From sequence record MN850578.1: 64,000 nt of DNA; one strand, given 5' to 3'. Shown here piece after piece: positions 10,009-37,359 of the stretch (positions within the stretch are counted from its first letter, which is position 1; each line of letters begins with the position of its first letter). The notes under the pieces were generated by a model. The model was not told the origin of the DNA. It saw only the letters and a list, made by a program, of their open reading frames with translations, and did not search any database. Both the position numbers and the translations under genes were made by a program. Source of the DNA: Escherichia phage nomo.

Positions 10009-10039
10009 TACTTGAAAATTCCTGGCATATCAAGTATAA

Positions 10040-21059: not shown

Positions 21060-23500
21060 TTTCCTACCATAAACGGCCCTACCTGGCAAGTGGAATAATT
21101 GACGAGCCATCAATCCCACACACTGTACAAATATACATGGAAAATAACTATTGCATAATTTTTCATTGTGTGGTAGCAAGGCCATTTTTACACGTTTTTC
21201 CTTCCAAAATTGCACGTAATGCAGCATTTGCACAAAATTTAACCTGATGCATATCTTCAATAGCTTGTCAACAACTAAAAATCTTTATAAGTCATACACT
21301 TACATAACTACAAAAACGTTTTCTACGTGAAAAATCGAGTATAACTATAGCCGCCAGATCTCAGAATTTACGTACGCTCGCCATTCTATAGCCTGCTAAG
21401 CATTTATTCCAACCATAGAATAACTGAATAGTCAATACCTGCATAAAATAATTATTCGTGTAAACTGCATAACATAAATCGGCCCAGGTGTCAACATTTT
21501 TCGTAAACAGTCTGGAATTGTCACGTTAGGTTACCATAAGTAGAGAAATCTTTAGTCGTCTAATGTTTACTGTACGTTACTATATTAACTGAAATCATTA
21601 GATGACTAATAGAAAGATAAGAAATAATTAACAATACAATTATTTTATCTGTAACAATAAGGCAACTATGCAAACGAATGGCATGGCGCGACGGAGTCGC
21701 GACATAATATAAAAGCAGTAACCATCACCCCCGTGATAGTTTGTCTGCAAACTATTAATCAGATCATAGTTGCCTTGTATTTAGTTAATCATGACATAAC
21801 AAGCAAGGCAACTATAGATCTGCTAATAGTTGCCCTGCTTTTATATTATGTCATGCTAATTATAATCAGTGCGATTATTGTCATGTATAATTATTGTCAT
21901 GCAAACGAATGGCATGGCTGATTATCGGTGTGTAAACAGTCAATCATGTAAATGGTTAGCATGTGAACAATCAGGAATGTAAACAATCCAGTGTGTAAAC
22001 TAATAGGTGTGTAAAAGTGTCATGTTGTGTCAGTTAGGTCACATTATGTCAGACAAGTTTTTCTCCTCTTTGTCAAGTGCTGCATGAAAAATTTACAAGC
22101 TTGTATGGTAGCATTTTTGCGGCCCTGTTTACATTCAGGAGTGTATGTATAATCCTTGTTGTGTGGGCGTTTAGACGTCTGGACGGTCAGAAGTCTGCAG
22201 GTCAATATCTAATCTATTGGCTGCTAACTATATCCCCCACAAATAATAAGAAATATAATTGTTATGTGCGTAAACAGTAACCCATGTTATCAATCCCTGT
22301 ATGTATCGCCAGTTGTGCGCATAATGGGTATTATGTTAAATTGCCCGTAATGATAACTATTCTCACAATGATAGGTATTCTCATTCACCCCCACAAGATA
22401 GGTTGCAAATGTTGTGCCACTGTGTGAACGGCCTCACCTATTAATTTGCCTCACTGCCTCGATATTTGAGAATTGTTATAAGAATGAGAAGTATTCCCAT
22501 TCCGTCCGCCTGGCAGCACTCCAGTCGCTACGGCTCCTGACAGGGCAGCACTCCTGTAGGTCAGGTCAAAATCGTGGTAGAACTGGACCTGTTCGGATAT
22601 TTCTGGCTGACTCTTCAGGTCTGTGTGGGAAAAGCCAACCCCTCCGGCGGGGCAGGGGATATCTGCAGGAAAATTGCAGGTCAATTAAAAATTTACGTGG
22701 TGTATGAAGCGCTCTTCAGGCAAGGCATGTATTAGAGGATGAAACCCTCTTCAGGCAATGATATTTGTGGGTGGGATATTTGCTGGAAAGCCAGATATGA
22801 CGGGACTCCCGGCGGGGCAGGGGTAGTACAGACAGGGAAAATATGAGGATGTAATTGGGGAAATTGATCAGACAGGTAGAGTATGGAATATGTTACAGGT
22901 ATGTTAAATATGGAGGTTGAATATCTGTAGGATTTGTGTGTAAAATCAAAGACTTAAGGGGTGTTGTGGTATTTTCTATAAATAATTCAAGTTTAATAGG
23001 CAATATTTGTCTCTATCCGCTTTGTGTGGTAAACAGATTCAGATGAAATTGGTTTACAAGTGTATACATAATATACAAATTAAAGATACAAGAAACCCCC
23101 CTCCCCCCTCGGCTACCATTCACCTTTTCCTCTGACTGGTACTTAAACACTTATTCAGACTCTTCAGGTTATCACCCATATATCATATGGCAGTGACTGG
23201 TGTCCTCCGGCCCCTCTTTCGTCACCCGTCCGCTTCGCCATGCTAATGCCATAGCCAATGGTTCGGTTGTTCACCCTGTTCACTCAGGTGTATCTCCATA
23301 CCCCTTCAAACCGAAGAGAACAGAAAACCCGAATTACTCGGTAAAAGAAAAGAGAAGAACTTAATTTTATCAGGATAGGCAAGAATGTCAAGGCATGACT
23401 GCTCACTAAACAAGCAAACAGTCATGTGTGGAAGGTAAGTGATTGTGGTGGTGGGAAATTTAGTTGAAAGATGTGTTATAGGTGCGCTTCCAGCACTTTA
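21060..23500. other. 2.5-kb non-coding convergence region with several repeat families
   Basis: No convincing ORF; repeats gcaaacgaatggcatggc (x2), tgtgtaaac-like array 21928-22016, ctcttcagg...ccggcggggcagggg units 22606-22840. Confidence 0.55.
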
Positions 23501-23520
23501 GCCTGGCAGCTAATTGTGTG

Positions 23521-23736
23521 TCAGTCCAGCGGTTCATCCTCTACTTCACTGAAATCAATGTTCATGGTCTCTTCCCAACCATCGATCTCAGCACAAGAGT
23601 GGAGTTCTTTAGGGTTTACTCCCAAAGCCTCAGCAACAGAGTCTATATTTAACACCTCTGGTAGGTATGATTCATCGAATTCAAGGTAAATCAGGCCACG
23701 AGTGTTGTCAGCCCCACCAAATATTTCTATCTTCAT
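23521..23736 (-). CDS. hypothetical small acidic protein (71 aa), MKIEI-type N-terminus
   Basis: ORF with RBS; first gene of leftward block. Confidence 0.4.
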   Translation of the reverse strand: MKIEIFGGADNTRGLIYLEFDESYLPEVLNIDSVAEALGVNPKELHSCAEIDGWEETMNIDFSEVEDEPLD

Positions 23737-23857
23737 GAAATCTCCTCTGGAAATGAGAGTGTGAACAGGGTTTTATACGTTCCAATGCACAAGAATTATA
23801 CACGTTTGCCTCTTCAGGCCATGCTTTAGCATGAGGAACCTGTGTGGGCTCGGTGCT

Positions 23858-24073
23858 TCATAGTCTACCACCTCTGAACTCTTCGTGCTCAGGCATAATA
23901 GAGAACCAGATATCTACGATGTCTCCCCACGTCAGGTCATCAGCCTCAGGATCTATCTGGGACGAAGATGAAGAGTCATCAGAATCTAAGTTTTCCTCTT
24001 TCACTGGCTCAGCCAATGGACAACATATGGTCACTCCTTCAGATGTCTCTTCAGATGCATGCGTGTTGATCAT
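23858..24073 (-). CDS. hypothetical acidic protein (71 aa); start uncertain
   Basis: ORF downstream of - strand consensus promoter (ttgaca...tagtat near 24215-24245). Confidence 0.3.
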   Translation of the reverse strand: MINTHASEETSEGVTICCPLAEPVKEENLDSDDSSSSSQIDPEADDLTWGDIVDIWFSIMPEHEEFRGGRL

Positions 24074-24433
24074 GTTCCACCCGTGAGTATTCCGGCAACA
24101 GCCGCTATGGACGTAATGATCATCAGGATCACCACTAAAACTTCGGACAATGTTCTCATTGTGTATCCCATATTCTCCAAACGATGTGTGGATACTATCA
24201 CTGGAACGGTAATGTGTCAACAGAAACGCCGCGAGGGTTTGGTTAAAATCCGAGCGTATGGTGATTTGGGTCAAAACGGACGTGCGTTCTCGCTACGCTC
24301 GAAAGAGAGATTTGTTTGTAGGAAGCTCTTAAACGCTCTGTAATGAGATTATCTGTCCAAGGTATGCAATCGTGCACCAGATAAAGAAAAGGACGCCACA
24401 GAGCGTCCTAGGTGTCTTAAATTTGATATTTTG

Positions 24434-24745
24434 TTATACCCATGAGGGTTTATCAAGGTTGGAGTAGCTGAAAGGTGTCAAAAGGTGATTGTCAAAATCT
24501 CTCAAACTATCCAGATCTTTCTCCTCGTCCTGACACCATCTGTGCCTACATTTATTGTTGTAGTGCATAGAATGCATAGCGTTCTGCAACTTAACAGGTA
24601 CAAGTGATTCAGGAGTAGATAGTATTGTTGGGTATGCCAGAACCACCTCAAACAGTGGAAACACATCGAAACTAAAGTCTACCTCTGCAGAGGTTGATGG
24701 CATATAGGAGTATTTAGCCGCCTTTGTAGACATAATCCACCTCAC
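24434..24745 (-). CDS. hypothetical protein (103 aa)
   Basis: ORF in co-oriented array; ATGA overlap with upstream gene. Confidence 0.4.
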   Translation of the reverse strand: MRWIMSTKAAKYSYMPSTSAEVDFSFDVFPLFEVVLAYPTILSTPESLVPVKLQNAMHSMHYNNKCRHRWCQDEEKDLDSLRDFDNHLLTPFSYSNLDKPSWV

Positions 24746-25074
24746 ACAGGTTTGATAATACCTTCACCGAATAGCTCTTCGTATCTAATCTTGTCCGGAT
24801 CCCACTCCTGGATAATTTCGAAGACAATATCCAACCCAGGAACAATCACTTCTCCAGTGTCAAGCTTAGCAAGAACAAAACCTGAAGGTTGAATGGTTTC
24901 CCAGTTACGGCGATCAGAATAAAATACTTCGAAAATATCACCAACCTCAATCCGTTTCTGTTGCTCAAGATGCTCAAGGTTCTCTTTCATACGGATGCAG
25001 CGTATTTTTCGTGCAGGCCATAGACCACCTGCATCACGTTCATTCAATTCTTTTACAGTGATCGGTATACCCAT
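24742..25074 (-). CDS. hypothetical protein (110 aa)
   Basis: ORF in co-oriented array. Confidence 0.45.
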   Translation of the reverse strand: MGIPITVKELNERDAGGLWPARKIRCIRMKENLEHLEQQKRIEVGDIFEVFYSDRRNWETIQPSGFVLAKLDTGEVIVPGLDIVFEIIQEWDPDKIRYEELFGEGIIKPV

Positions 25075-25129
25075 CTCAAATCTCCTTCATAGATAGTAAA
25101 AAGAGGGGCCCAAGCCCCTCTCTTTGTCA

Positions 25130-25435
25130 TTATTCTACAGAGCGTTTGAACAGAATGTCTGCCTCGGACATGTGCTCAACCTCTTCTTCGATTTTAGCTC
25201 GACGTTTTTCAGCCTCATAGCGAATATCGAACTCGGTAGCCACCAGAGATTTGATGAATTTAGGAGAATACAGGTGATCCTGCTTCTCAACGAGAATGAT
25301 ATCCTTAATGGCATCTTTCAGATCTTTAATCTGAAGTTGGAGTTCCACCAGTTCTTCGATTGTCTTGCGAAGGCGATCACGCTCTGCAGTGTCAGAAGGA
25401 AGAGAGGTGAACAGTTCAACTTTAGATTTAGCCAT
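25130..25435 (-). CDS. hypothetical protein (101 aa)
   Basis: ORF with RBS; charged, helical-looking translation. Confidence 0.45.
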   Translation of the reverse strand: MAKSKVELFTSLPSDTAERDRLRKTIEELVELQLQIKDLKDAIKDIILVEKQDHLYSPKFIKSLVATEFDIRYEAEKRRAKIEEEVEHMSEADILFKRSVE

Positions 25436-25463
25436 AGTAAGAGTCTCCTTATGTTGTTTTAAA

Positions 25464-25715
25464 TTAACGTTCTACAAAAATACCGTTCAGTTCAATAACC
25501 AGGAATTTCTGGTCTTCACTGTCGTCTCGTGCCAGCACCTCACAGACGTATCGGTCATCTCCATCATCATCGCAGTCAAATACAAGACTGAGGACTTTAT
25601 CATGATAAACCTTCGCCACTACCGCCTCGTAAGTATTGCCGATTGTGAATCCAAGATAATCTCCGATGCATTTGACAACAACATGGTCGCCAGCATTCAA
25701 GTCAATCTTCGTCAT
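25464..25715 (-). CDS. hypothetical protein (83 aa)
   Basis: RBS aaggag upstream of ATG at 25715. Confidence 0.45.
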   Translation of the reverse strand: MTKIDLNAGDHVVVKCIGDYLGFTIGNTYEAVVAKVYHDKVLSLVFDCDDDGDDRYVCEVLARDDSEDQKFLVIELNGIFVER

Positions 25716-25870
25716 TACTGCGCTCCTTGGGTAATAATACTGTATGTAAAACTTTAACCAGAGATGTGAATAACGCCCCAAAACACACCGATAGCGCTAA
25801 AACAGACAAGGCCATCATCAAAGCTTCAGTAAAATCAGTCATTCCTCACCTCTTGTTAGTCACTATACTA

Positions 25871-26134
25871 TCATTTATCCTTGCCGTCAAGAACTTTTTT
25901 AAATCTTTCAGGGATATCCCCCGTTCTTAGATAGTTCATGACCTCACAAGGTTCCCACTTGAATTTCTTACAGAGCAGGGCGGCTGAGATTGTTTCATTG
26001 CGAAAAGAAAGGATATTAATATCCCACTCTGAGAACCCCAACTTCCGAAGGGTAGCTACAGAAATCCTCACCGCAACCCAGCAGCAAAAACATGCAACAA
26101 ACGCCACTGCTACAACCCACATCAGGATGTTCAT
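25871..26134 (-). CDS. hypothetical membrane protein (87 aa)
   Basis: N-terminal hydrophobic helix MNILMWVVAVAFVACFCCWVAV. Confidence 0.4.
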   Translation of the reverse strand: MNILMWVVAVAFVACFCCWVAVRISVATLRKLGFSEWDINILSFRNETISAALLCKKFKWEPCEVMNYLRTGDIPERFKKVLDGKDK

Positions 26135-26223
26135 ATAAGCACCTTACTGAAATACAAGACACAGTGTTAAGGTTACTGACCAGCAAATAATTAACAGTGC
26201 CGTTGCAACCTTGGCAAGATTTA

Positions 26224-26511
26224 TCATAGTGCCTCTAAGATTTCATACCCTTCGGGTCGGAATACAAGCCACTCCGTGGCTCCGTTTGGTCGATACGCTT
26301 TATACAGAACAACCTGGTCTCGGCACATGCACATGGCTACATAGTTTTCATCCACACCTGCAGCCTGCATTGCATCTTCTTCTCCGGCAACTGCTTTGCT
26401 TACAACTTCCTTGGTAGGCAGGTGTGCGATCAGCTCGTCACCATCATTAATTCCAAAATGGCTGAGTTCGCCGTTGGTATCTTTAATCTTAATCTTAACC
26501 AGATCTTTCAT
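26224..26511 (-). CDS. hypothetical small acidic protein (95 aa)
   Basis: Translationally coupled array (TAATG/ATGA overlaps). Confidence 0.45.
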   Translation of the reverse strand: MKDLVKIKIKDTNGELSHFGINDGDELIAHLPTKEVVSKAVAGEEDAMQAAGVDENYVAMCMCRDQVVLYKAYRPNGATEWLVFRPEGYEILEAL

Positions 26512-26840
26512 TAGTCTTCCCCCAGGTTCAAAGGTCCTAAGATTTCATATGCCAGATTAGAAGTTACCAGAGGGTCTTCTGCATCTTTAGTATTGTACCA
26601 CCCGTGAATAACCAGAGTCCCACTTTGTTTCATATCCAACTGGAACTGTTCTGCAGTTTCCTCATCCATCTCTAAGATCTCCATGAGGTATTTGATGTTA
26701 GGAAGGTATGCAGCTGTTACAGTTCCCTCCACCAAACCTTCGGGCCAACCTACATCCGGATGACAAGTAGGAACCAGATTAGTCAGCTTAATAGTGTACG
26801 CTTTTTCTGCACGAGCCTTCAGTAACGGGTCAATCTTCAT
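26511..26840 (-). CDS. hypothetical protein (109 aa)
   Basis: TAATG overlap with neighbours. Confidence 0.45.
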   Translation of the reverse strand: MKIDPLLKARAEKAYTIKLTNLVPTCHPDVGWPEGLVEGTVTAAYLPNIKYLMEILEMDEETAEQFQLDMKQSGTLVIHGWYNTKDAEDPLVTSNLAYEILGPLNLGED

Positions 26841-27190
26841 TATTCGTCCTCCTCTTCGGTGCCTGCTTCCAGTAATAAGTTAAGAATATCTTCTGCACAA
26901 GGTTCATAGAACTCTTGGCCTTCATTATCGATGATTTTGTAGTCATCTCCACGAATAATCAGGGGATCACTCTCAAAATTATCGAGACCTTTAACAACTA
27001 CAACACGATCGATTGCCATCATCGTAAGAACTTTATCGACATCTTCCTCTGCTACACCATACTGCAGCAGAATGTCTTTGGTAGGAGGAACAGCATCCAC
27101 CACAACGCCGTTACCAAAACCTTCTGGAAGTTTAGCTAAAATATCTTCCGGAACCACATTCACATCAAAACCGGTAATTTCTACTTTCAT
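26840..27190 (-). CDS. hypothetical small acidic protein (116 aa), MKVEI-type
   Basis: Tightly packed array; N-terminal MKVEITG shared with other members. Confidence 0.45.
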   Translation of the reverse strand: MKVEITGFDVNVVPEDILAKLPEGFGNGVVVDAVPPTKDILLQYGVAEEDVDKVLTMMAIDRVVVVKGLDNFESDPLIIRGDDYKIIDNEGQEFYEPCAEDILNLLLEAGTEEEDE

Positions 27191-27451
27191 TTACAGCACC
27201 TCTTCGTCAACTACTTCATAAAAATGGCCTGGGATTGCAATAGCGTTCTCACCTTCACCTACAAACACAGTTCCGTCAAGAATCAACATCATAAGAATTT
27301 CTGTAATATCCTCTTCCGGAACGTTGCCAAAACCTTTAATCAGCTCGTAGGTTGGAATATTTACCTCTAAGATGTCACCATCTTTAGAACGGAAATCAAC
27401 ACCGTCCTGAATCTCTGCCTTTTCAAGGTTTTTCAATTTAATCTTCATCAA
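27191..27451 (-). CDS. small acidic protein, paralog family A (86 aa)
   Basis: N-terminal MMKIKL and C-terminal FYEVVDEE pattern shared with 28615, 30135, 30379, 34029. Confidence 0.45.
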   Translation of the reverse strand: MMKIKLKNLEKAEIQDGVDFRSKDGDILEVNIPTYELIKGFGNVPEEDITEILMMLILDGTVFVGEGENAIAIPGHFYEVVDEEVL

Positions 27452-27527
27452 TCGGTCTCCTGTCTTGTTAAGATGAAGGTATTATTTCACACAGGGTTGG
27501 CGTTGTCAACACCTGTGTGCAAGAAAA

Positions 27528-27923
27528 TTACTGAAACAGTGCGGATAAATTACCTTCTGGTGGGAACTTATCTGCCAAAAACGGTGTTAGCACAGTAGCC
27601 TTCTGAAGATCTGGGGTCCACTCGTTGTTCAGAACATCCCAGTAGTACGCAATGTTGCTGTGTGGGTGCCGCATTACGAACTTTTTCCCTTCGTAGTCAT
27701 CTGAAACCTCTACAGAAGAAATAACAACAGAATCTTCAAGGGTTTCTTCATAGAAAGATCCGCCTTCAAATTTCCAACGAGATGCAAGAGCCCCTGCCTT
27801 GAACGCTGCAGATAACGGACTGTCGGCAAGAACATACATTTCTTGCACTCTGTCGCTGCGATCTTTGCTTCTTACGTTGTATACAGTATCTGAGCTATAC
27901 TCAACACGGTATAGGCTTACCAT
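27528..27923 (-). CDS. hypothetical protein, paralog family B (131 aa)
   Basis: Shares HPxS...YW...WTP...AT.L motif with 29735-30133. Confidence 0.45.
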   Translation of the reverse strand: MVSLYRVEYSSDTVYNVRSKDRSDRVQEMYVLADSPLSAAFKAGALASRWKFEGGSFYEETLEDSVVISSVEVSDDYEGKKFVMRHPHSNIAYYWDVLNNEWTPDLQKATVLTPFLADKFPPEGNLSALFQ

Positions 27924-28255
27924 TACCGCACCTCCTCAATAACTTCCACATCTGAACCTACCACAAATGCAAAAGGACAGGTTTCATGAAAGACATCCGG
28001 ATCGCCGCCAAGCTTGCTAACAATCTCTCCACCACTAATAAACACAAGCTCACCGATATTCATCAGATTGCTGAAATAGTACCCATAATGATTAAAGAAT
28101 GCAGCAGGGTCAGGTAGATTAGTAGCCTCAAGCACTACATCGGTTGAGGTTACTTTCTTATCATAACCTCTCGCCTTTTGAGATGCAAGATCTGCAGAAT
28201 CCTCAGGCGACCGGAGATGCACAGGAATTGTTTCACCAATAAAGCGTACTTTCAT
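27923..28255 (-). CDS. small acidic protein, paralog family A (110 aa)
   Basis: Starts MKVRFIG, ends SDVEVIEEVR. Confidence 0.45.
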   Translation of the reverse strand: MKVRFIGETIPVHLRSPEDSADLASQKARGYDKKVTSTDVVLEATNLPDPAAFFNHYGYYFSNLMNIGELVFISGGEIVSKLGGDPDVFHETCPFAFVVGSDVEVIEEVR

Positions 28256-28259
28256 ATTA

Positions 28260-28523
28260 TCACCCAACAACCATAGCTTCAAAAGGAGTCATGAACGAAT
28301 AAACGGCATCATCATCTGCTTCAGGGAATGCTCCCAAAGACTTCATATCTGAGCCCTTGACAAATACAAGGTTTTGATCAAAGGCTTCTTGGGGGTCAAT
28401 CCGATACATATTTCGTAAAATATCGCTTACCTCCTCATCAAGAGGTGAGTATGCTGTGCACGTTTTTCCGATCAAGCTTTGAGAATCAGGGTATCCACCT
28501 GAAGTTTTAAAATAAACAATCAT
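28260..28523 (-). CDS. hypothetical protein (87 aa)
   Basis: ORF in array. Confidence 0.4.
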   Translation of the reverse strand: MIVYFKTSGGYPDSQSLIGKTCTAYSPLDEEVSDILRNMYRIDPQEAFDQNLVFVKGSDMKSLGAFPEADDDAVYSFMTPFEAMVVG

Positions 28524-28614
28524 ATAGTATCACCTCTGGTAAGAGATTGGGACTCCTTTCCCACAAATAATTACAAATCTTCCTTAGCGAGGAAGTATGC
28601 TAATCCAAGCAGGA

Positions 28615-28884
28615 TTATTCCTCTACAATCTCATACACATCAGGAGTTACAATCAACTCTTCTCCGTTACCCGGTGCAACAAACACCACCAAACCTTCAG
28701 GTGTGTGCTTTTTAGCCATCTCGATAACATCTTCTCGCAGAGCTGGCTCCATCAGATCAAAACCTTCACCTAGGGCATCACGAACCACCTTCATATAGTC
28801 CACTGGTTGTGCTTCAACAATCATGCCTTCAACCAGTCCACAGTTTTTGTCTGCCAGCTCAGTTTTGAATAATTTAATTTTCAT
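28615..28884 (-). CDS. small acidic protein, paralog family A (89 aa)
   Basis: Starts MKIKLFK, ends PDVYEIVEE. Confidence 0.45.
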   Translation of the reverse strand: MKIKLFKTELADKNCGLVEGMIVEAQPVDYMKVVRDALGEGFDLMEPALREDVIEMAKKHTPEGLVVFVAPGNGEELIVTPDVYEIVEE

Positions 28885-29021
28885 TTAGAGGTCTCCTCAA
28901 TTATTTGATATTAATAGCCGTAACCTAACACATTAACTACAACTGCGATTGCAAACATAATTTCAAAGCATGCAATCTCTACATTTGGGACTAATTTCTT
29001 AATCACACCCATTGTAGCACC

Positions 29022-29342
29022 TCATTCTCCAAAGTCAATCTTTACTTTGCCTTTCCCCTTACCTTTCTTTCCACCGCATTTAGCCAGCTGACGTGCTGCG
29101 ACATCTACCATACGGTCAGTTGCCTCGTAAGCATCACTGACTTTAGCCTTGGCAATAACTTCTTTTCCAGAATTGTCAAAAATGAACGCCATAACTTCCT
29201 GGTGATCATTTTCAACTTTTACACTCACACGTGCATAGTTAACAGAGGGATGTAAACGCTCCAGCTTGGACATTTTGCGGGAAATAAAAGATACCATACC
29301 TTCTGTGATTTCTACATTGTTGCCAGTGATTTCAATTTGCAT
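29022..29342 (-). CDS. ribosome hibernation factor homolog (RaiA/YfiA/HPF family)
   Basis: Translation begins MQIEITGNNVEITEG, nearly identical to the conserved N-terminus of bacterial RaiA/HPF (MQLNITGNNVEITEA), with further conserved positions. Confidence 0.75.
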   Translation of the reverse strand: MQIEITGNNVEITEGMVSFISRKMSKLERLHPSVNYARVSVKVENDHQEVMAFIFDNSGKEVIAKAKVSDAYEATDRMVDVAARQLAKCGGKKGKGKGKVKIDFGE

Positions 29343-29426
29343 AACGTGTTCCTTTTAAGGAAGAGGGAATAACTATCTCTCTTTGAAAACAATGATACTA
29401 AATCTGAAGCGTTGTGTCAACAGTTT

Positions 29427-29717
29427 TTACAGCTTGTTGTCGATAGTTTTTAAAATATCCACAGCAAGATCTGCCATTTTTCGAACATACTCTGCAAACT
29501 CAACAGGATCCTTGATCAAAGAATTCACAGGGTCGTACCCTAGAGCGTTTAAAATGGCTGCAGCATCTACAACCTTCTCATCATTTGCGAAGATCTCTCC
29601 GTCAAACTTGTAGGTCCATTTTGAGTCAACCTTAGCAGAGCAGGGTTTGTCCATGCTTGTTACACCATCGTCTTTAAACTCTCCTGCGTTATCAATATTT
29701 AGAATTAAATCCATCAT
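29427..29717 (-). CDS. hypothetical protein (96 aa)
   Basis: ORF in array. Confidence 0.45.
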   Translation of the reverse strand: MMDLILNIDNAGEFKDDGVTSMDKPCSAKVDSKWTYKFDGEIFANDEKVVDAAAILNALGYDPVNSLIKDPVEFAEYVRKMADLAVDILKTIDNKL

Positions 29718-29734
29718 GGTGACACCTCACTGTT

Positions 29735-30133
29735 TCAGTCTAGCTTTTCTTCAACAACCCCATAACTTGGGGCAGAGTCAAGAGCTTTCTGGTTTAAAAG
29801 TGGCGTAGCAGAATCTGCAAACGGTGTCCAAGTTTTTGTTCTGGCATTCCAGTAATGCTTCACTCTGGAATCTGGATGCACTATAACAAAAACTTTTTCA
29901 CTTGTCAACACATTAATTTCTTCTACACCCTTGCTGATAATTTCTCCGTCGTAGCCCCCAGTCTGGTATCCTTCGTACCAGGTTCTTGCATAGGCATAGC
30001 CAGCCTGCCAGCATGCAGCCTCCTCCGAGGTGGAGACTACGTAGAAGTCTTTCTCAAATTCCGGAATACGCCCTTGCTTTACGCTCCAAGCTCCGCGAAT
30101 TTTCATTGTTACTTTGAAAAGCTTGTTCTTCAT
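29735..30133 (-). CDS. hypothetical protein, paralog family B (132 aa)
   Basis: HPDSRVKHYWNARTKTWTP matches HPHSNIAYYWDVLNNEWTP of 27528-27923. Confidence 0.45.
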   Translation of the reverse strand: MKNKLFKVTMKIRGAWSVKQGRIPEFEKDFYVVSTSEEAACWQAGYAYARTWYEGYQTGGYDGEIISKGVEEINVLTSEKVFVIVHPDSRVKHYWNARTKTWTPFADSATPLLNQKALDSAPSYGVVEEKLD

Positions 30134-30134
30134 A

Positions 30135-30389
30135 CTACCGCTCTACAATCTCTACGTCTGTTCCTACACCGAAGGCATAGTAATGTTCTTCCCCAAAGTA
30201 ATACTTGGGGACACCCGCTTTGATCAGATCTAACCCGCGAATAAATACCACACCGTGTGATACAGTGGAATGCTTCTGACGCACAGGATCGTTGTCAGGC
30301 AACCATTCAAAGTACACCGCAGGTACAACCTTTCCCTTCAGGAAGGATTGTCCCAAGTAGACGTTAGAATCAAGAATTTTAACCTTCAT
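30135..30389 (-). CDS. small acidic protein, paralog family A (84 aa)
   Basis: Starts MKVKILDSNVYLGQ, ends TDVEIVER. Confidence 0.5.
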   Translation of the reverse strand: MKVKILDSNVYLGQSFLKGKVVPAVYFEWLPDNDPVRQKHSTVSHGVVFIRGLDLIKAGVPKYYFGEEHYYAFGVGTDVEIVER

Positions 30390-30606
30390 TCTCGTCCTCC
30401 ACTATCTCTACATCCTCACCAAGGGCAAAGTTGTAGGTCCACTGGCTGTCAAAGCAGTCCTGAGATGCACCAGCGGCAATAAGATCTGCACCTTTTATTT
30501 TTAAAAGGTCAGGATAATCTTCGTTAGGGATAGCGGTAAACACTTTCCCCACTAAGGGCTCCTGACCAATATAGAAGCTTGAATCTAAAACTTTAACTTT
30601 CATCAA
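30379..30606 (-). CDS. small acidic protein, paralog family A (75 aa)
   Basis: Starts MMKVKVLDSSFYIGQ, ends EDVEIVEDENEG. Confidence 0.5.
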   Translation of the reverse strand: MMKVKVLDSSFYIGQEPLVGKVFTAIPNEDYPDLLKIKGADLIAAGASQDCFDSQWTYNFALGEDVEIVEDENEG

Positions 30607-30890
30607 CGGTCTCCCTCAGGCGGTTGTGGGACGTAAACACTGTTACGAATATCGTCAGCAGTGTAGTAATAAGTGGTTCCAACCCTATCTCGGGCTGCAA
30701 TGTACTCTGCTATACCAACAAGTGCCATTGATTTGGTGGCGTATCTTCCCCACTCGTTAGCTCCCCAGTAGAATTTAGACCAGTAGGGAATAAGACCGAA
30801 CAAATATACCTTTTGACGAACTTCCCAGTAAGTGCCTTTTCCGACAAGTTTAAACTCTACTTCACTACTGTTAATCTTTTTCATTATCAA
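30603..30890 (-). CDS. hypothetical protein (95 aa)
   Basis: ATGA overlap with neighbours. Confidence 0.45.
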   Translation of the reverse strand: MIMKKINSSEVEFKLVGKGTYWEVRQKVYLFGLIPYWSKFYWGANEWGRYATKSMALVGIAEYIAARDRVGTTYYYTADDIRNSVYVPQPPEGDR

Positions 30891-31183
30891 TCTCCCTCTA
30901 CCGTGGTCGGATTGTCAGTAAGAAATTGAGCATTGGCTGGAGGCACGCCTGACATTTTCCACACAACCATAAGTTTATAACCAGGCACTCTATTAAGTGC
31001 AGATCGAGTAGAGTTTGTGCACGTATACTTTCGCTTTCCAAACCCGTTCTCCATCATAATCCAGTACCCAGTATCTTTGTCACCAGGTATCGGTAGACCA
31101 CCTTCATCAACCCACTGAATTGACCACGGCACGATGGCTACAGCTTTATATTTAAACTTTTTAAACCACTCAAAAAGTTTCAT
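30887..31183 (-). CDS. hypothetical protein (98 aa)
   Basis: ORF in array. Confidence 0.45.
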   Translation of the reverse strand: MKLFEWFKKFKYKAVAIVPWSIQWVDEGGLPIPGDKDTGYWIMMENGFGKRKYTCTNSTRSALNRVPGYKLMVVWKMSGVPPANAQFLTDNPTTVEGD

Positions 31184-31278
31184 AATTCAGCCCCGCATAG
31201 ACATAATCACTATAAACAGGCAAACAATGAATCCGAATGCCACGCCACCCATAAACGTTAATATTGATGCAATCATAG

Positions 31279-31464
31279 TCAATCAGCCTCGCCTGGCAAC
31301 TCTTCTACCTTAACATGCCGAAAAGTGTTACCGTAATGGTTGATCCATGACATCAGCTCACTTTCTTGCTCTTCCTCTGGGATGAACTCTCGAATACTGA
31401 CAAGTTTTAAGAAAACCCAATCACAATCTGCACCCATTCTACCAGACAGACAATAGTGCTTCAT
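31279..31464 (-). CDS. hypothetical protein (61 aa)
   Basis: Strong RBS gggaggg upstream of ATG at 31464. Confidence 0.4.
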   Translation of the reverse strand: MKHYCLSGRMGADCDWVFLKLVSIREFIPEEEQESELMSWINHYGNTFRHVKVEELPGEAD

Positions 31465-31483
31465 AAAAACCCTCCCGCCCGGT

Positions 31484-31678
31484 TTAGAATATTGCTTCTT
31501 CCATTGCGCCTGAGAGCAACAAAGAGGTGATCTGGCTAACATTCATCTCAGACTCTACTTCCTCCCCTTTGAAAGGTTCGCGGCAGAATAGGACTGTTTC
31601 AGGACTTTTACTTCGAACAATATAATACAAATCATTCAATGTGTTGTAGTAATAAGTGTTAAAACGTAAGTTTTTCAT
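31484..31678 (-). CDS. hypothetical protein (64 aa)
   Basis: ORF in array. Confidence 0.4.
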   Translation of the reverse strand: MKNLRFNTYYYNTLNDLYYIVRSKSPETVLFCREPFKGEEVESEMNVSQITSLLLSGAMEEAIF

Positions 31679-31962
31679 TTTCTAGTCCTCTTCTTAGATT
31701 TTTGGGGAGAAACGCTTTCTGCAATACGAGACAGACGTTCTTCTGAAGCCTTACCTACTCCAGGTTTTTTGAGTGGATTATCTTTATGACCACAATCCAA
31801 CTGGATATTGGATACCTCTCCAACTTTGTAAGTCAATTCTAGCAAAAGGTTGTCGTCCTTGTCAAATGTTTTTACGATAAATTTTTTATCGTTCTCCTGA
31901 ACTTCATATCTGGTACCTGCAGTATACAGCATGGTGCCATCAGCATAGGATATCCAGATCAT
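31675..31962 (-). CDS. hypothetical protein (95 aa)
   Basis: ATGA overlap with neighbours. Confidence 0.45.
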   Translation of the reverse strand: MIWISYADGTMLYTAGTRYEVQENDKKFIVKTFDKDDNLLLELTYKVGEVSNIQLDCGHKDNPLKKPGVGKASEERLSRIAESVSPQKSKKRTRK

Positions 31963-32306
31963 TGAGCCTCCTTTTGCTGCAACAGCATTAACTCTTTGTT
32001 AGAGATCTTTACTGCTGTTTTTATTGTTCCATCTTCACGAAACCACGACCAGAACTCTACAGTGTCACCACTATCAAGTAAAGCATGCCCATGGTAAAAA
32101 TCTTTGTCCTTAGACAGTTTCTCATCTATATCTGCATCAACACATTCGTGATCCAGAGCATTTTGCCTGAACGCATCGGTTATGCCAATGCACGCCTTGC
32201 TCTCAAGACTGGTATATCCGATATCTTTTAATTCAGTTTCCCAAGTCCAGTACCCTATAAAAGCTAAAACAGCTACCCACAGTAATAACGTTTTAATCTT
32301 TGGCAT
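31959..32306 (-). CDS. hypothetical exported or membrane protein (115 aa)
   Basis: N-terminal hydrophobic segment MPKIKTLLLWVAVLAFIGYWTW. Confidence 0.45.
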   Translation of the reverse strand: MPKIKTLLLWVAVLAFIGYWTWETELKDIGYTSLESKACIGITDAFRQNALDHECVDADIDEKLSKDKDFYHGHALLDSGDTVEFWSWFREDGTIKTAVKISNKELMLLQQKEAQ

Positions 32307-32368
32307 TCTCTCTACCTCTTTCTTAGTTTATTTCACTATGGCATATCCTTTGTGCCATATCTCAACTA

Positions 32369-32839
32369 CTACTTAAATAGTAGTTCAAAATAGTGCAAAA
32401 TTAACAGAAGTTGAACTACACCTAGTGCAACGGCGAGTATGTTAATCTTAGAATCGAAAAACTTCTTAACTTTTACTCTAAAAGGTTCCTTAATGTCCTT
32501 TACGATCCTATCTATAGATGACCTCATATCTCTGATTACCATCCTGAACATTAAAGACGGATGCTCCCCCATCTCTGTAACGGAATCGAAAACATACTCT
32601 CTTCGGTCATAAGGGCCGCCAGCTCTGCGTATTAACCTCTCCACAGAGACCTCGAACGTCACACCTGTAACGTAATCATCTATAACAAGTCGTGACGGGT
32701 CTTTACCTTTACTATCAAGAGGTATCAAAGTTATCTTTCCAGATTTTGTTAAAATTTCCCCTTTTTCAAGCAAGGTGTACCAATGCTCTCTGCCAAGACT
32801 GTTGAGGCACGTTTTTACATATTTAACAAACATCGTCAC
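32369..32839 (-). CDS. hypothetical protein with C-terminal TM helix (156 aa)
   Basis: C-terminal INILAVALGVVQLLLILHYF hydrophobic segment. Confidence 0.45.
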   Translation of the reverse strand: MTMFVKYVKTCLNSLGREHWYTLLEKGEILTKSGKITLIPLDSKGKDPSRLVIDDYVTGVTFEVSVERLIRRAGGPYDRREYVFDSVTEMGEHPSLMFRMVIRDMRSSIDRIVKDIKEPFRVKVKKFFDSKINILAVALGVVQLLLILHYFELLFK

Positions 32840-33039
32840 CCCTCATCGCACGTCTGATATAACCACTCTATAAAATCTTGATACCATTCGCCCTCTGAGC
32901 GCTCCGTAGGCCAATAATCTTCACCCTCTCGTGCATTAAAATCTGAGTATTCAACTTTCCACTCCTTTACCAGCTCGTGGAGAAGGTTTTCAGCCTGCTC
33001 TAAAGATTTATTTTTTACCATTACTGTCTCCTTTTTCAA
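32836..33039 (-). CDS. hypothetical protein (67 aa)
   Basis: ATGA overlap with downstream gene. Confidence 0.4.
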   Translation of the reverse strand: MKKETVMVKNKSLEQAENLLHELVKEWKVEYSDFNAREGEDYWPTERSEGEWYQDFIEWLYQTCDEG

Positions 33040-33240
33040 GATAGTTATACATCAGAACTGCACCACCTAAGATGGCTACCAGTAACAATATCCCAGATAG
33101 CATCTCAATAAACATGGCTTGAAACACTGGAAGGTCTCCCTAAATTAACGCACCATTTTAAATACATGCTCTTTTCCCATAAAGGTGCCTGGCTAAGATC
33201 TGCGTAGAACGCAATCTCTTTAAGAACAGTATAGATAGTT

Positions 33241-33468
33241 TTAGGTGCGGTCTCCATCCCTACTCTCCTTCCTGATATTCTTGTAGTAATCAACTAGGCA
33301 CATTATTACGATGAAGATAACAACAGGCCAAAAAGGTGCAGCAGTGATGATGGTGATAAAATCATCAAACTTCACCCTTCGTCTGGACACGATGCATACA
33401 CCTGTCAAGAATACCGCTGTTATAACGGACATTACCAGGTAACCTATTAGCACAACATTTATACTCAT
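33241..33468 (-). CDS. hypothetical membrane protein (75 aa, two TM helices)
   Basis: Two hydrophobic helices in translation. Confidence 0.45.
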   Translation of the reverse strand: MSINVVLIGYLVMSVITAVFLTGVCIVSRRRVKFDDFITIITAAPFWPVVIFIVIMCLVDYYKNIRKESRDGDRT

Positions 33469-33498
33469 TGGTCCTCCCTTTGTAGGTTAAATTGTATA

Positions 33499-34032
33499 CT
33501 ACAAATGGTCGCTGAGGGTGTCAAGAAAATTATCCCGTTCTTTCTCAGAGTTTTCATGTGTGTAGCTGAAAAACATATCGAGAATAACCTTATTGATATA
33601 TTCCAGCTCCTCTGTGTTCAGATGCTTAGCAGGATCTACAATGACATCCCAAATATCATACAGACCACACTCATGATACCCATAACGCCACTCAATTGTC
33701 AAGCTGAGCGGCAAATCTTTACCTTCACAAACAACCTTCCATCTACATATGTTGGTATCTGGTCGTACCTGTGCACGGTACACCTGCACAAAATCCAATT
33801 TGAATTTGAGGTACTCGTCATACAATTTAAGCACAAAGCTCTCGATTTGTGGAGACACTTTTGCAGCAAACTGTGCGTATTTGTACTTGCACTGGATGAT
33901 CTTTCTGCGTTTTGCAGTTAAATTTTTTGCCGCCAGTTGTTCTTCAGTGTATCTCCACCTACGATCAACAAACGCAACAGGGTCTTTGTCCCCATATAGG
34001 TCTTCCCAGTTAATCAGAAGCATACCTGTCAC
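33499..34032 (-). CDS. hypothetical protein (177 aa)
   Basis: ORF in array. Confidence 0.5.
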   Translation of the reverse strand: MTGMLLINWEDLYGDKDPVAFVDRRWRYTEEQLAAKNLTAKRRKIIQCKYKYAQFAAKVSPQIESFVLKLYDEYLKFKLDFVQVYRAQVRPDTNICRWKVVCEGKDLPLSLTIEWRYGYHECGLYDIWDVIVDPAKHLNTEELEYINKVILDMFFSYTHENSEKERDNFLDTLSDHL

Positions 34033-34262
34033 TCCTCCACAACTTCAAGGCCTTTACCGCCTCGCTCTGGCAGATTACTTAAAGATAGGTAATACATATA
34101 ATCAGGAGAGATCCTGCCAGACTCTGCACCTGCAGCTAGTAAATCCTTCCCTTTAACCAGGACAACATTCTCGTTTGCAGATAGCCGTTTTGCTTCCACA
34201 ATTTTACCAACACAGTCAACCAAGGAAGGGTACCCTAAATCTGTAAGAAATTTAACTTTCAT
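34029..34262 (-). CDS. small acidic protein, paralog family A (77 aa)
   Basis: Starts MKVKFLTDLGY, ends GLEVVEE. Confidence 0.45.
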   Translation of the reverse strand: MKVKFLTDLGYPSLVDCVGKIVEAKRLSANENVVLVKGKDLLAAGAESGRISPDYMYYLSLSNLPERGGKGLEVVEE

Positions 34263-34299
34263 GCTACCTCCTACCTACCGTCCCTGGTGAGATAAATTA

Positions 34300-34698
34300 T
34301 TACTGAACAGAGCGCGGTGCTGGGAAGGATAACTCTTCTAAAGAGAAGATTTCATTTCCTACCACCCAAGTTGCTGGGTCATCTGGATCAACAGGTTGGA
34401 TAATCATTACCTCATCCGCCTCGCACACACGTTTCCCACCCATAGTAGCGTCAGCCACTAACATACGCGGCTCTTCAGAAATGCACAGGTAGCCACCTCG
34501 GCCCACTGTTCCTTCCACGGGATCCTGCCCTTTGACCACAATGAATACCTTCTCTCCTGTGGCGATATTACTTTTCACACTAACAGTTTGACCAACTTTA
34601 GATGTACCGATCTTGGTGGCTTCAAACATTAAATCCCGAATTACTGTTGCATAGTTGCCGGACACTTTCTTACCTTCTTTAGTAATCTCAATCTTCAT
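34300..34698 (-). CDS. hypothetical protein (132 aa)
   Basis: ORF with RBS; MKIEIT N-terminus. Confidence 0.45.
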   Translation of the reverse strand: MKIEITKEGKKVSGNYATVIRDLMFEATKIGTSKVGQTVSVKSNIATGEKVFIVVKGQDPVEGTVGRGGYLCISEEPRMLVADATMGGKRVCEADEVMIIQPVDPDDPATWVVGNEIFSLEELSFPAPRSVQ

Positions 34699-34970
34699 AA
34701 TCTAGGCTCCTTAAATGAATCTATGTAATCAATTAAATCCCAAGCATCGCGATGGGCTGTCAGAGGGTATACTTCTCCGAGAGGGATCATAGCAATAAGT
34801 CTATCAAAAACCCAGTCTGGACGCAACATTTTATGGTGATATTCCCACTCACCTTCCACAGATTTTTTCTCAGTGATCAGGATCTCTGTGTAGTGTTTCG
34901 CCTGTCTTGAGTAGATTGAAAATGACTTGTACATAAATGACCCCCTCTTGTTGAAAACAACAATACACAA
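34695..34970 (-). CDS. hypothetical protein (91 aa)
   Basis: ATGA overlap. Confidence 0.45.
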   Translation of the reverse strand: MCIVVFNKRGSFMYKSFSIYSRQAKHYTEILITEKKSVEGEWEYHHKMLRPDWVFDRLIAMIPLGEVYPLTAHRDAWDLIDYIDSFKEPRL

Positions 34971-35285
34971 CTACCAGGTTACTGTCAAGTAGGCAACCGT
35001 ATTATTTTTCTCTGGGGAGATGCCAACAACATCTACCTGCAGACCTCCTGCCCTTAAATCTCCAACAATGTGCGGGAAGTAATCTGAGAGATGCGAGGGT
35101 AGATTTATCGAAAATCCGCACCCCAGAAAGCCTGCTAACGCTTTATTTTGTATCTCCCCTACAATCGCATCATAAATGGAGTTAAGCTCGTCAGGGAGCG
35201 TTACAGGACGTTTTAGCGCTAACTGGTGTAATTTGTCCTTAGCACTCATTTTCATTTCAGGTCTACCTCTGGTGGTGCCAACCAC
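34971..35285 (-). CDS. hypothetical protein (104 aa)
   Basis: ORF in array. Confidence 0.45.
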   Translation of the reverse strand: MVGTTRGRPEMKMSAKDKLHQLALKRPVTLPDELNSIYDAIVGEIQNKALAGFLGCGFSINLPSHLSDYFPHIVGDLRAGGLQVDVVGISPEKNNTVAYLTVTW

Positions 35286-35785
35286 ATAAATGGCGGCAAG
35301 CCTAAACGGTTTTTCTTATCCCACACAAAATATGCATATGCTTGCCCGTCAGTTCTGCCATTTGATTGAAAAGATGGACGCTTAGATATTGTGATCACAG
35401 TGGTAGGTGCATTATCAAGCCACCATTCAAATCTGGCTTTGCTTTCCAGAAAATTAAGACGCAAAAGCATAATAACTACGTCAGCATCTTTCAACGCCTT
35501 GTCTACAAACTCACGAGCCAAACTGTATGGTGGGTTGGTGATAATACAGTCAACATGGTTGTATTCTGTATTCAGATAGTCAACACCTTCTTGGATTTCT
35601 CCCCATGCAGATCCTAACGGCATACGGGAGTAGAACACACCTGAGGCACTATTCCTGCAAGGCTCTAAGTAGGTCCAGTCTTCTGGGAACGGAATAAGGT
35701 CATACAGCCCTTCTGCACACCACTCCGGTGTCACATACTCATCGTAGGCGTTACGTTGTTCATCAGGTTTTCGAGCACAAGTCAT
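35252..35785 (-). CDS. DNA N6-adenine methyltransferase, small phage Dam-like
   Basis: Translation contains IITNPPY (motif IV NPPY of amino-methyltransferases) in a ~177-aa protein. Confidence 0.6.
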   Translation of the reverse strand: MTCARKPDEQRNAYDEYVTPEWCAEGLYDLIPFPEDWTYLEPCRNSASGVFYSRMPLGSAWGEIQEGVDYLNTEYNHVDCIITNPPYSLAREFVDKALKDADVVIMLLRLNFLESKARFEWWLDNAPTTVITISKRPSFQSNGRTDGQAYAYFVWDKKNRLGLPPFMWLAPPEVDLK

Positions 35786-35836
35786 GCAAATCTCCAGATC
35801 ATAAAAGCCCTCCGAAGAGGGCTTTAGAATTAATGT

Positions 35837-36886
35837 TTAAGCTTCTTCGACAATCCCTGCACCCAGGATTTTTTCATTGAGCTCTTTTGCTGTTTTAATA
35901 ATATTGTCCACCAGACGCTTGCGAGTCTTATCTTTTACCTTAACCTCTTCACCGCCGTTCAGGGTTGTCTTCAATTGGGACAGAATGTCTTGAAGTTCAA
36001 CGACAGAGAATCGCTGCAGATCTTCTGAGGTAATCTCGCCTAAGGCAATCTTAACGGTCTCACCACTTTCCATCTGCAGGTTCAGGAACACAGTGTGAAC
36101 ATCACCTTTCGAACCACCCGCTTTTGCAGATTCAACAGCATGAACTAGCTCATCTAAAGAGGTGCACTGGTGAATCTCCGGAAGACCTGCTTCACCTAGC
36201 ACACCTTCTTCATCACCTTTTGCCAAAAGCTTTTTAGGTTTTTGTCCGTTCTGGATGCGTTGTATGTTGCCTTCATCCAGAATGATAGCTCCAGTTCGAG
36301 CTGCCAGCTCCTCTCCGTCCAACCACACTTCGCCACCAGCTGTGATGGATGCGATCTCATCTTCTGTCAGCACCCAACCGTAGTATTTTTCGATCAGGCG
36401 TTCGAAACGTTTTTTCCAGTAGCTGACCTGAGTATTCATGTTCACACCATTGCCATAAGTGCCGCCTTGATAGTAGTGGAACATAAACTCTGTGTCCGGA
36501 GCCACAGTGCGTTCTTTGCAACCCAGCCATAGGATTGTTCCAGCAGAGCAGCACATCCCTTCAGCATGTGCAACAACGCTTGCCTGAGACTCGCGGAATG
36601 CCTGTAGATAAGCCATTGCAATGTGCACGCAACCCCCAGGGCTATTGATGATCACACGAATGCTTTCTTCCGGCTGAGCCATACGGATCGTCTGCAGACG
36701 AGACATATGATCCTGCAGGTCCTCCAAATCGTCGATATAAAGAACGTGGTCAACAACAGGTGTTGGGTAGCTGTATGTTTCCATAATACCACCCGGCATA
36801 CCAAACATTTTATTACTCATAGGTTCGAAACCGTTCTGTTTTTCTTTCATGCCGTGTACCATGGTGCTGCGAGGTGTTAAATTCAT
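35837..36886 (-). CDS. ClpP-like serine peptidase (S14/S49 fold) with C-terminal extension
   Basis: INSPGG motif identical to the ClpP oxyanion-hole region; downstream GMCCSAGT resembles the catalytic Ser segment. Confidence 0.5.
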   Translation of the reverse strand: MNLTPRSTMVHGMKEKQNGFEPMSNKMFGMPGGIMETYSYPTPVVDHVLYIDDLEDLQDHMSRLQTIRMAQPEESIRVIINSPGGCVHIAMAYLQAFRESQASVVAHAEGMCCSAGTILWLGCKERTVAPDTEFMFHYYQGGTYGNGVNMNTQVSYWKKRFERLIEKYYGWVLTEDEIASITAGGEVWLDGEELAARTGAIILDEGNIQRIQNGQKPKKLLAKGDEEGVLGEAGLPEIHQCTSLDELVHAVESAKAGGSKGDVHTVFLNLQMESGETVKIALGEITSEDLQRFSVVELQDILSQLKTTLNGGEEVKVKDKTRKRLVDNIIKTAKELNEKILGAGIVEEA

Positions 36887-36946
36887 GAGAAATCCTTAAT
36901 ATTGGAAGTTGAAAGCTATTTATTTAAACCTGATTCACATTTACCT

Positions 36947-37258
36947 TTATTTAGCAATCACTATGGAATACTTACGATTGTCAGAAGCATCACAACTCAA
37001 TGATTGCCAGTCTACCACATACCACGTATCATTGTCAACAATTACTTTATCGCCTGTTCTGTAGCAGATGCTGCTTTCAATAATTCGAGACTCGATAAAG
37101 AATCTGTGTCGGCGCTCACGTAGCAACGCTAAGTTGATTATGTTACCACCGCTGTCCTTGATCCACACATTCTTGGATCCTTTATTTGCCAAAATTGTCT
37201 CGCCGTTATAGACAAACAGGCAGTATATTTTATTCAGTTTCTCTTGTATTGTAGCCAT
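36947..37258 (-). CDS. hypothetical protein (103 aa)
   Basis: ORF in array. Confidence 0.4.
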   Translation of the reverse strand: MATIQEKLNKIYCLFVYNGETILANKGSKNVWIKDSGGNIINLALLRERRHRFFIESRIIESSICYRTGDKVIVDNDTWYVVDWQSLSCDASDNRKYSIVIAK

Positions 37259-37359
37259 ACTGTCCTTCTCTCTGTTTTGTCCGATAATAATATCTAAAGT
37301 TTACCTATTTGTCAACAACTGTTTTAGATATTTAAGGGTGGAATAACCACCCTTCTGTA

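Follow-up and report, generated by a model that had tools for sequence, protein, structure and literature searches.

Three families of small paralogous proteins, one modelled as an SH3-like barrel, in a compact gene array of an rV5-like coliphage

The early regions of phages T4, T5 and T7 contain clusters of small host-takeover or accessory genes, many of them non-essential, and the DNA-mimic anti-restriction proteins T7 Ocr, ArdA and T4 Arn are likewise small, early and often acidic. Here we describe a run of small genes in Escherichia phage nomo (MN850578.1), of which a stretch of 64,000 nucleotides, hereafter the window, was analyzed; the genes in question lie between positions 26,224 and 34,262. 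With the T4, T5 and T7 clusters this array shares tightly packed small open reading frames (ORFs), host-type promoters and local paralogs. Its proteins resemble Ocr, ArdA and Arn in being small and often acidic, but they are not strongly and uniformly negative, and the fold predicted for one of their families, A1, is not that of a known mimic. The closest fold class of A1 is that of the SH3-like small β-barrels (KOW of Spt5/NusG, PsaE, SH3 and the retroviral integrase C-terminal domain). PHROGs holds entries for A1 (phrog_5009) and for a second family, B (phrog_7379), both of them without structure or function. We find that twelve genes of the array fall into three families: A1 with five members, A2 with five and B with two. 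The explanation that we consider best overall, at about even confidence and with its functional part inferred by us, is that ancient duplication produced three families of accessory protein-binding modules, in which A1 and B may act as a pair.

Translations of the 33 minus-strand genes from 24.7 to 35.8 kb were compared with one another in every combination, and profiles were then iterated on the complete set of 741 stop-to-stop ORFs in the window. Iteration groups five genes, named here by their lower coordinate, at E <= 3e-8. These A1 genes, all on the minus strand like every gene of the array, are 34029 (34029–34262; 77 residues; gp122/ORF127 of phage rV5), 30379 (30379–30603; 74 residues; gp135/ORF140), 30135 (30135–30389; 84 residues; gp136/ORF141), 28260 (28260–28523; 87 residues; gp142/ORF147) and 27923 (27923–28255; 110 residues; gp143/ORF148). 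A profile made from 47 A1 sequences recovers exactly these five genes at E = 6e-32 to 3e-14, including 34029 at 5e-24, 28260 at 1e-17 and 27923 at 3e-14, and its next best match has E = 0.24. Similarly, hhalign assigns the five a probability of 98–99.8% (98.4% for 28260 and 98% for 27923) and every other gene of the region at most 19%. By direct comparison, 30135 and 30379 are 42% identical (BLASTP E = 1e-15). PHROGs agrees with this grouping in part: 30379, 30135 and 34029 match phrog_5009 end to end (E = 4e-37, 4e-27 and 8e-36), 28260 matches it weakly (1.2e-4) and 27923 does not. PHROGs separates 27923 (phrog_13661) and 28260 (phrog_13920), whereas our profile search places both in A1. All PHROGs families that were matched are labelled "unknown function".

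Five further genes, 27191, 28615, 26840, 26224 and 26511, are undetected by the A1 profile (E > 0.05), even when only the 33 regional genes are searched. Their proteins align colinearly with one another, and in leave-one-out tests a profile of any four returns the fifth as its top non-training match among the 741 ORFs. We call this family A2; by these tests it is a real second family, weaker than A1. Its members are 28615 (28615–28884; 89 residues; gp141/ORF146; leave-one-out E = 4.9e-4, 16.0 bits against a shuffle maximum of 12.6), 27191 (27191–27448; 85 residues; gp145/ORF150; E = 5.5e-3), 26840 (26840–27190; 116 residues; gp146/ORF151; E = 2e-4, 17.5 bits against 10.2), 26224 (26224–26511; 95 residues; gp148/149; E = 2.4e-4, 17.8 bits against 12.2) and the weakest, 26511 (26511–26840; 109 residues; gp147/ORF152; E = 2.2e-2, 11.0 bits against 7.5). 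The pair 27191 and 26840 is linked by phmmer (E = 1e-5) and joined on iteration at E ~1e-25 (2e-25 for 27191). The A2 sequences are divergent, and their matches are confined to rV5-like phages.

The initial annotation had described a single family of at least six to eight small acidic proteins, recognized by similar N- and C-termini, and had stated that the proposal would fall if the shared termini were due to compositional bias only. We therefore rely on shuffled controls, in which each left-out protein was shuffled in two ways, 500 times each: in full, and with the first 6 and the last 8 residues fixed. Left-out A1 members score 16–52 bits against shuffle maxima of 5–14 (28260, for example, 16.2 against 5.6), and left-out A2 members score 11–18 bits against maxima of 6–13; no shuffle reaches a real score. 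Because even shuffles with fixed termini stay below the real scores, A1 and A2 are real families whose similarity lies in the protein interior, and a likeness from composition or termini alone is ruled out within A1, A2 and B. The paralogy thus survives its proposed refutation, but as two families and not one. Against the deep A1 profile, A2 members reach −1.8 to 4.2 bits, and A1 members reach −1.1 to 3.2 bits against the A2 profile, in both cases inside the shuffle distributions and similar to the scores of unrelated neighbors such as the HPF gene. Profile-profile alignment of A1 with A2 is colinear, running through strand 1, a G-x-G-x-V-x-A segment, an insertion and a final Y/V-E-I-V-E strand, but reaches only 36–47% probability. 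As judged by the deep A1 profile, hhalign and the cross-family shuffles, a single family is not supported; A1 and A2 have no detectable sequence relationship and are not demonstrably related. All genes first assigned to family A belong to A1 or A2, to which 28260 (A1) and 26511 (A2), both overlooked, must be added.

Why, then, do the termini of unrelated families look alike? We examined the 36 minus-strand genes and 35 junctions between 24742 and 35785. At 17 of the 35 junctions the Shine-Dalgarno sequence of the downstream gene (GGAGG or GAGGAG, the latter reading Glu-Glu) lies inside the upstream coding sequence; 27923 ends in GAG GAG GTG CGG TAA, overlapping the ATG of 27528, and 26840 ends in GAA GAG GAG GAC GAA TAA ahead of 26511. 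The last six residues contain on average 2.0 Asp/Glu when the next gene lies within 12 nucleotides (n = 20) and 1.27 when it is farther away (n = 15), against 0.95 expected from composition, and the second residue is Lys in 16 of the 36 genes at an overall Lys content of 7.6%. These three observations imply that the "MK…" start and the "…EE" end are in part translation signals, and the resemblance between unrelated families at their termini is largely a by-product of such signals in a compact operon; the termini are not supported as evidence of homology. Two observations run counter to an explanation by signals only: 28615 and 26224 keep Y-E-I-(V/L)-E with a spacer of ~90 nucleotides behind each, and in distant A1 homologs the last strand of the barrel is still E-V-E-V-V-E-E. 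Acidity, the other proposed trait, does not distinguish these families. The 33 regional proteins have a median isoelectric point (pI) of 4.84, with 58% below 5; the A1 proteins range through 4.05, 4.09, 4.65, 5.42 and 6.82 (the last being 30135), and the two B proteins have values of 4.74 and 6.74.

The A1 domain spans ~70 residues with the signature MKVKLL-GGY-G...GKVV-A...I-G-DLI-AGA...Y-F-G-EVEVVEE. An exhaustive HMMER search of 1.84 billion representative proteins returned 55 clusters at E <= 1e-3, and a total of ~50 A1 clusters at the 50%-identity level, from many unrelated phages and prophages, is credible. Most matches are proteins of 63–90 residues with the same end-to-end pattern. Others are fusions: P0049 contains three tandem copies, P0054 and P0077 contain two each, and P0080 joins an A1 domain to DUF3310. 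Two long matches, P0045 (1334 residues) and P0076 (954 residues), consist of low-complexity repeats and were judged false positives. The A1 family alignment has no stretch conserved enough to reach distant loci in viral contigs, and a tblastn search with its consensus extended to Vequintavirus only. Sequence searches of Pfam, NCBIfam and the Protein Data Bank returned nothing for A1, A2 or B: no family member from the window matches Pfam at E <= 1, the 47 aligned A1 members have no Pfam match at E <= 0.01, and this includes the KOW/NusG-Spt5 family (PF00467). A1 is therefore a phage-wide domain absent from Pfam, repeatedly amplified and fused, and we consider it the most interesting component of the array.

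An AlphaFold2 model of 30379, made from the 47-sequence alignment, has a mean predicted local distance difference test score (pLDDT) of 92 and a predicted template modelling score of 0.80. Its strands comprise residues 2–5, 21–23, 33–37, 56–61 and 65–69, and a short helix at residues 38–43 bears the conserved DLI-x-AGA motif. A1 is thus confidently modelled as a five-stranded, partly open SH3-like β-barrel of ~60 residues. Among viral models, Foldseek recovers this fold from small, uncharacterised proteins of numerous phages, Merlin, CS01, pSf-1, Sf20 and RB49 among them. Insertions specific to individual paralogs (~14, 17 and ~45 residues, the last in 27923, and none in the others) all fall between strands 2 and 3.

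A possible fragment of the same domain lies beside the array members. Residues ~28–45 (AKVDSKWTYKFDGEIF) of the 96-residue protein of 29427–29717 (minus strand) resemble A1 strands 4–5 (FDSQWTYNFALGEDVEIVE), and the ortholog in a divergent relative (IDNEWSYTFEGDIVVED) is closer still to those strands. At the DNA level, a 27-nucleotide repeat links 29603–29629 with 30426–30452 at 78% identity. 29427 may be what is left of an A1 gene joined to a helical tail, although its HMM match (E = 0.54) is not significant.

The two B genes, 29735 (29735–30133; 132 residues; gp137/ORF142) and 27528 (27528–27923; 131 residues; gp144/ORF149), had been recognized as a pair in the initial annotation, and this holds: their products are 28% identical over 119 residues (BLASTP E = 6.5e-10) and both match phrog_7379 (E = 6e-74 and 2e-66). 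B matches are found in rV5-like phages only, and the predicted B model has a pLDDT of 57. Each B gene lies immediately downstream of an A1 gene, with a stop/start overlap or a gap of 1 nucleotide; the start of 27528 overlaps the stop of 27923 by 1 nucleotide, at the junction ...GAGGAGGtgcggtaATG. The proposed duplicated unit of two genes is in fact one of three, A1-A1-B, present as 30379-30135-29735 and as 28260-27923-27528, with junctions that overlap or lie 1–4 nucleotides apart. In P0043, a metagenomic protein of 107 residues, the middle of the 29735 product and the C-terminal part of the 29427 product are joined; it looks like another natural deletion variant at this locus.

Small leftward genes are present at every coordinate initially given for the array, and all genes of interest form one tightly packed run downstream of PhoH-like, ClpP-like and adenine-methyltransferase genes. 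The array is not contiguous. Read in the direction of transcription, the lone upstream A1 copy, 34029, is followed by at least ten unrelated genes before the first triplet (30379, 30135, 29735); next come 29427, the HPF gene, a 33-codon ORF, 28615 (A2) and the second triplet (28260, 27923, 27528); and after the promoter P150 follow 27191, 26840, 26511 and 26224, all A2. In rV5 numbering the array genes are ORF127 and ORF140–154. Over its 8.5 kb, the region shares 99.4% identity with Escherichia phage ECO111 5-P and 99.3% with phage magaca. All 121 phage matches are rV5-like (Vequintavirus) records, and 114 of them cover at least 80% of the region in one stretch at 80% identity or more; by these matches, the window is part of the genome of a Vequintavirus, an rV5-like coliphage. 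In related records nearly every gene here is labelled "hypothetical". The rV5 genome paper does not mention paralogs, and we found no mention in the literature of the rV5 protein accessions of the array genes.

We then considered the age of the array. A divergent rV5-like contig, L009 (GCA_002973135.1, JZQG01000004.1), whose neighboring genes are 45–89% identical to those of the window, keeps all five A1 genes, 28615 and a 27528-type B gene in the same order. This contig ends after the 27528 ortholog (39% identity), which places the downstream A2 run outside the comparison. In a core-column tree each A1 protein of the window pairs with its own L009 ortholog, and 30379 and 30135 are sisters. 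Farther afield, a more distant large-phage lineage (L014–16) has ClpP, methyltransferase, 34971-like and 34300-like genes and a 34029-type A1 gene in order, at 28–48% identity. The array is old, given the separate L009 orthologs and the order kept in L014–16, and on the evidence of the tree all five A1 genes are shown to predate the split from the L009 relative. A recent segmental duplication is ruled out by these separate orthologs and by the DNA itself, in which no repeat longer than 27 nucleotides remains. The B copy number varies between lineages, since the slot of 29735 is filled in L009 by an unrelated gene for a protein of 106 residues (L009 8264–8584).

One A1 gene has a different history. 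In the same tree 34029 groups with P0029, a protein of a lambdoid prophage (52–55% core identity), and not with its genome-mates. Its syntenic position is kept in both L009 and L014, which are distant lineages. The P0029 gene belongs to a cluster of small ORFs flanked by the Q antiterminator and the holin, and is the sole gene common to that prophage and the window. Together, the tree and the conserved gene order indicate that the array was built by ancient duplication and at least one exchange with temperate lambdoid phages.

Near-consensus σ70 promoters support a setting in which host RNA polymerase transcribes these genes. A scan of the 15 kb from 23000 to 38000 (threshold at least 10 of 12 matches) found 14 sites in the coding (minus) orientation against 1 on the plus strand, several of them inside coding sequences (for example 29880–29908, 31836–31865 and 33673–33702). 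Two are annotated in rV5 and listed in its Table S4: P144 (29392–29420, minus strand; TTGACA-17-TATCAT), inside the array and upstream of the HPF gene, and P150 (27481–27509, minus strand; TTGACA-17-AATAAT with an extended −10 TG; 11 of 12 matches), upstream of the four-gene A2 run that begins with 27191. The HPF gene itself, which encodes a ribosome hibernation promoting factor of the phage (29022–29342, minus strand; Pfam PF02482, Ribosomal_S30AE, E = 1.6e-14), lies between the two triplets and is kept in L009. No transcriptome of a Vequintavirus infection turned up in the literature. Mass spectrometry of rV5 virions names gp52, 53, 60, 61, 64 and 133 only, and no array member (PMC3606486); such data say nothing on expression inside infected cells.

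Phage EduardKellenberger (Bas59; MZ501061.1) provides a natural deletion. By blastn breakpoints and its annotation, Bas59 lacks the interval corresponding to 29821–33626 and with it 30379, 30135, most of 29735 and ~ten other genes; what remains at the junction is one fused gene, made of the homolog of 33499 and the tail of that of 29735. Bas59 is viable and was isolated on E. coli K-12, and this natural deletion shows that some array genes are dispensable in the laboratory. An accessory, host-polymerase-transcribed character of the array is therefore plausible in light of the promoter asymmetry, P144 and P150, and Bas59. The deletion also takes the ortholog of rV5 ORF133/gp128 (window 32369–32833), annotated as a virion structural protein and reported as predominant in rV5 virion mass spectrometry; since Bas59 lacks it, this protein is apparently non-essential.

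How might such proteins act? We propose that the array genes would provide accessory proteins from host-RNA-polymerase transcripts, and that these would work by binding other proteins, of host or phage, and not as enzymes or DNA mimics. In A1, the conserved barrel could serve as a scaffold on which the variable loop between strands 2 and 3 gives each copy its own specificity. The tight coupling of A1 and B genes suggests that the two are made together and may act as a pair. A stronger version, in which A1 is an unrecognised and widespread modular binder or inhibitor of host proteins, its specificity set by the loop, that in rV5-like phages forms a two-component unit with the translationally coupled B, strikes us as speculative and unlikely as it stands.

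Several points weigh against the proposal of ancient, protein-binding accessory modules. No member is tied by experiment or homology to any function or partner. Nucleic-acid binding, too, occurs among SH3-like barrels, so that for the A1 barrels protein binding is only the more likely of the two. The timing of expression is read from promoter consensus only. The tree does not show the position-equivalent A1 genes of the two triplets as closest relatives; instead of one segmental duplication, tandem duplication at a later time or selection for adjacency may thus account for the triplet, and the earlier suggestion of a repeatedly duplicated unit is to this extent unproven. Finally, across ~117 Vequintavirus records identity to the window is 90–100% for 28615 (95–100% in 117 phage records) and for 26840, and 81–100% for 30379. 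With conservation this high, a constant, housekeeping-like function would be at least as good a fit as a changing role in host interaction, and the variability expected from an arms race is not supported.

The same conservation, with little presence/absence variation across the genus, bears on the idea that the paralogs are anti-defence inhibitors, a diversified set of DNA mimics or binders of defence proteins directed at bacterial immune systems. This idea draws on much of the evidence above: the proteins are small and often acidic, they are encoded in multiple copies behind σ70-type promoters usable by host RNA polymerase, some are dispensable in a restriction-deficient K-12 laboratory host, one A1 homolog lies within the small-gene block of a lambdoid prophage, and in other phages A1 copies stand beside replication genes, where accessory genes often cluster. 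Against it, near-neutral pI values occur in two of the five A1 proteins and in one B protein, and Vequintavirinae are reported to be "exceptionally susceptible" to restriction-modification systems, apparently without effective protection (PMC8594841). The DNA-mimic or anti-restriction role initially put forward is disfavoured by the fold, the spread of charge and this published susceptibility; the proteins may act against other, non-restriction-modification systems, and anti-defence as a whole we consider unlikely. Searches of Pfam, NCBIfam and PHROGs gave no named match for any family member.

The gene contexts of A1 elsewhere could also suggest a role internal to the phage, as assembly chaperones or as replication or recombination accessory subunits that bind phage proteins. 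A1 homologs are found there within replication and recombination modules. Next to some of them lies a DnaB-like helicase or RNA ligase gene. Two A1 genes occur on an unrelated phage contig of 42.5 kb (L017), at 5925–6122 (minus strand) and 9986–10210 (plus strand): one sits in the replication module, between Prim-Pol and AAA_24/DUF669/DEAD-helicase genes, and the other among clustered small ORFs that precede the holin by a few genes, much like the lambdoid prophage gene between Q and the lysis genes. Apart from the small-ORF clusters, these contexts are early or middle replication neighbourhoods, and all of them, together with the high conservation across the genus, speak for such a role. Yet contexts differ between phages, and no recurring neighbor gene of A1 was found across them; the loss of two A1 genes and one B gene leaves Bas59 viable, and no A1, A2 or B member is among the named rV5 virion proteins (PMC3606486). 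We regard this role, too, as unlikely. Least probable by far is a module directed at translation, in which A1 (as a KOW/L24-like barrel), B (as an eL20/LX-like sandwich) and the embedded HPF would act on host ribosomes: the HPF/RaiA gene does lie between the triplets with its own promoter, but the matches of the B model may be meaningless given its low pLDDT, HPF is not a neighbor of the A1 homologs of other phages, and no KOW or ribosomal Pfam family matches. The proposal of accessory protein-binding modules accordingly remains the one we favor.

The families were already implicit in PHROGs, and small multi-copy accessory genes in a large virulent phage are a familiar phenomenon. Still, rV5-like phages are among the commonest myoviruses of E. 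coli and are candidates for phage therapy, and ~30 consecutive genes here are annotated only as "hypothetical"; sorting ten of them into two five-member families, plus a pair, leaves fewer independent unknowns. A1 now has a reliable structural model, and Bas59 is a natural deletion strain for comparison. If A1 were indeed a modular binder of host proteins, its amplification and fusion would make it a useful model of how small effectors diversify. For the annotation of compact phage operons more generally, shared "MK…" and "…EE" termini can come from translation signals and not from ancestry.

Some database records of this region deserve comment. The orthologs of 28615 in magaca, inoa and nom are among several that GenBank records label "sigma 54 modulation factor"; 28615 has no similarity to the sigma 54 modulation family (no Pfam match), and the label seems to have been copied from the neighboring HPF gene. 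In the rV5 reference (L006 9526–9796), the annotation divides the 26224 ortholog into two short genes that overlap, gp148 and gp149, of 213 and 135 nucleotides, which suggests a frameshift or a difference in sequencing or annotation. Lastly, eighteen MG0656xx records (including H13, H14, H40 and H47) are named "Campylobacter phage" with Campylobacter jejuni as host; their identity to rV5-like phages of E. coli over this region is at least 93%, and the host label looks doubtful.

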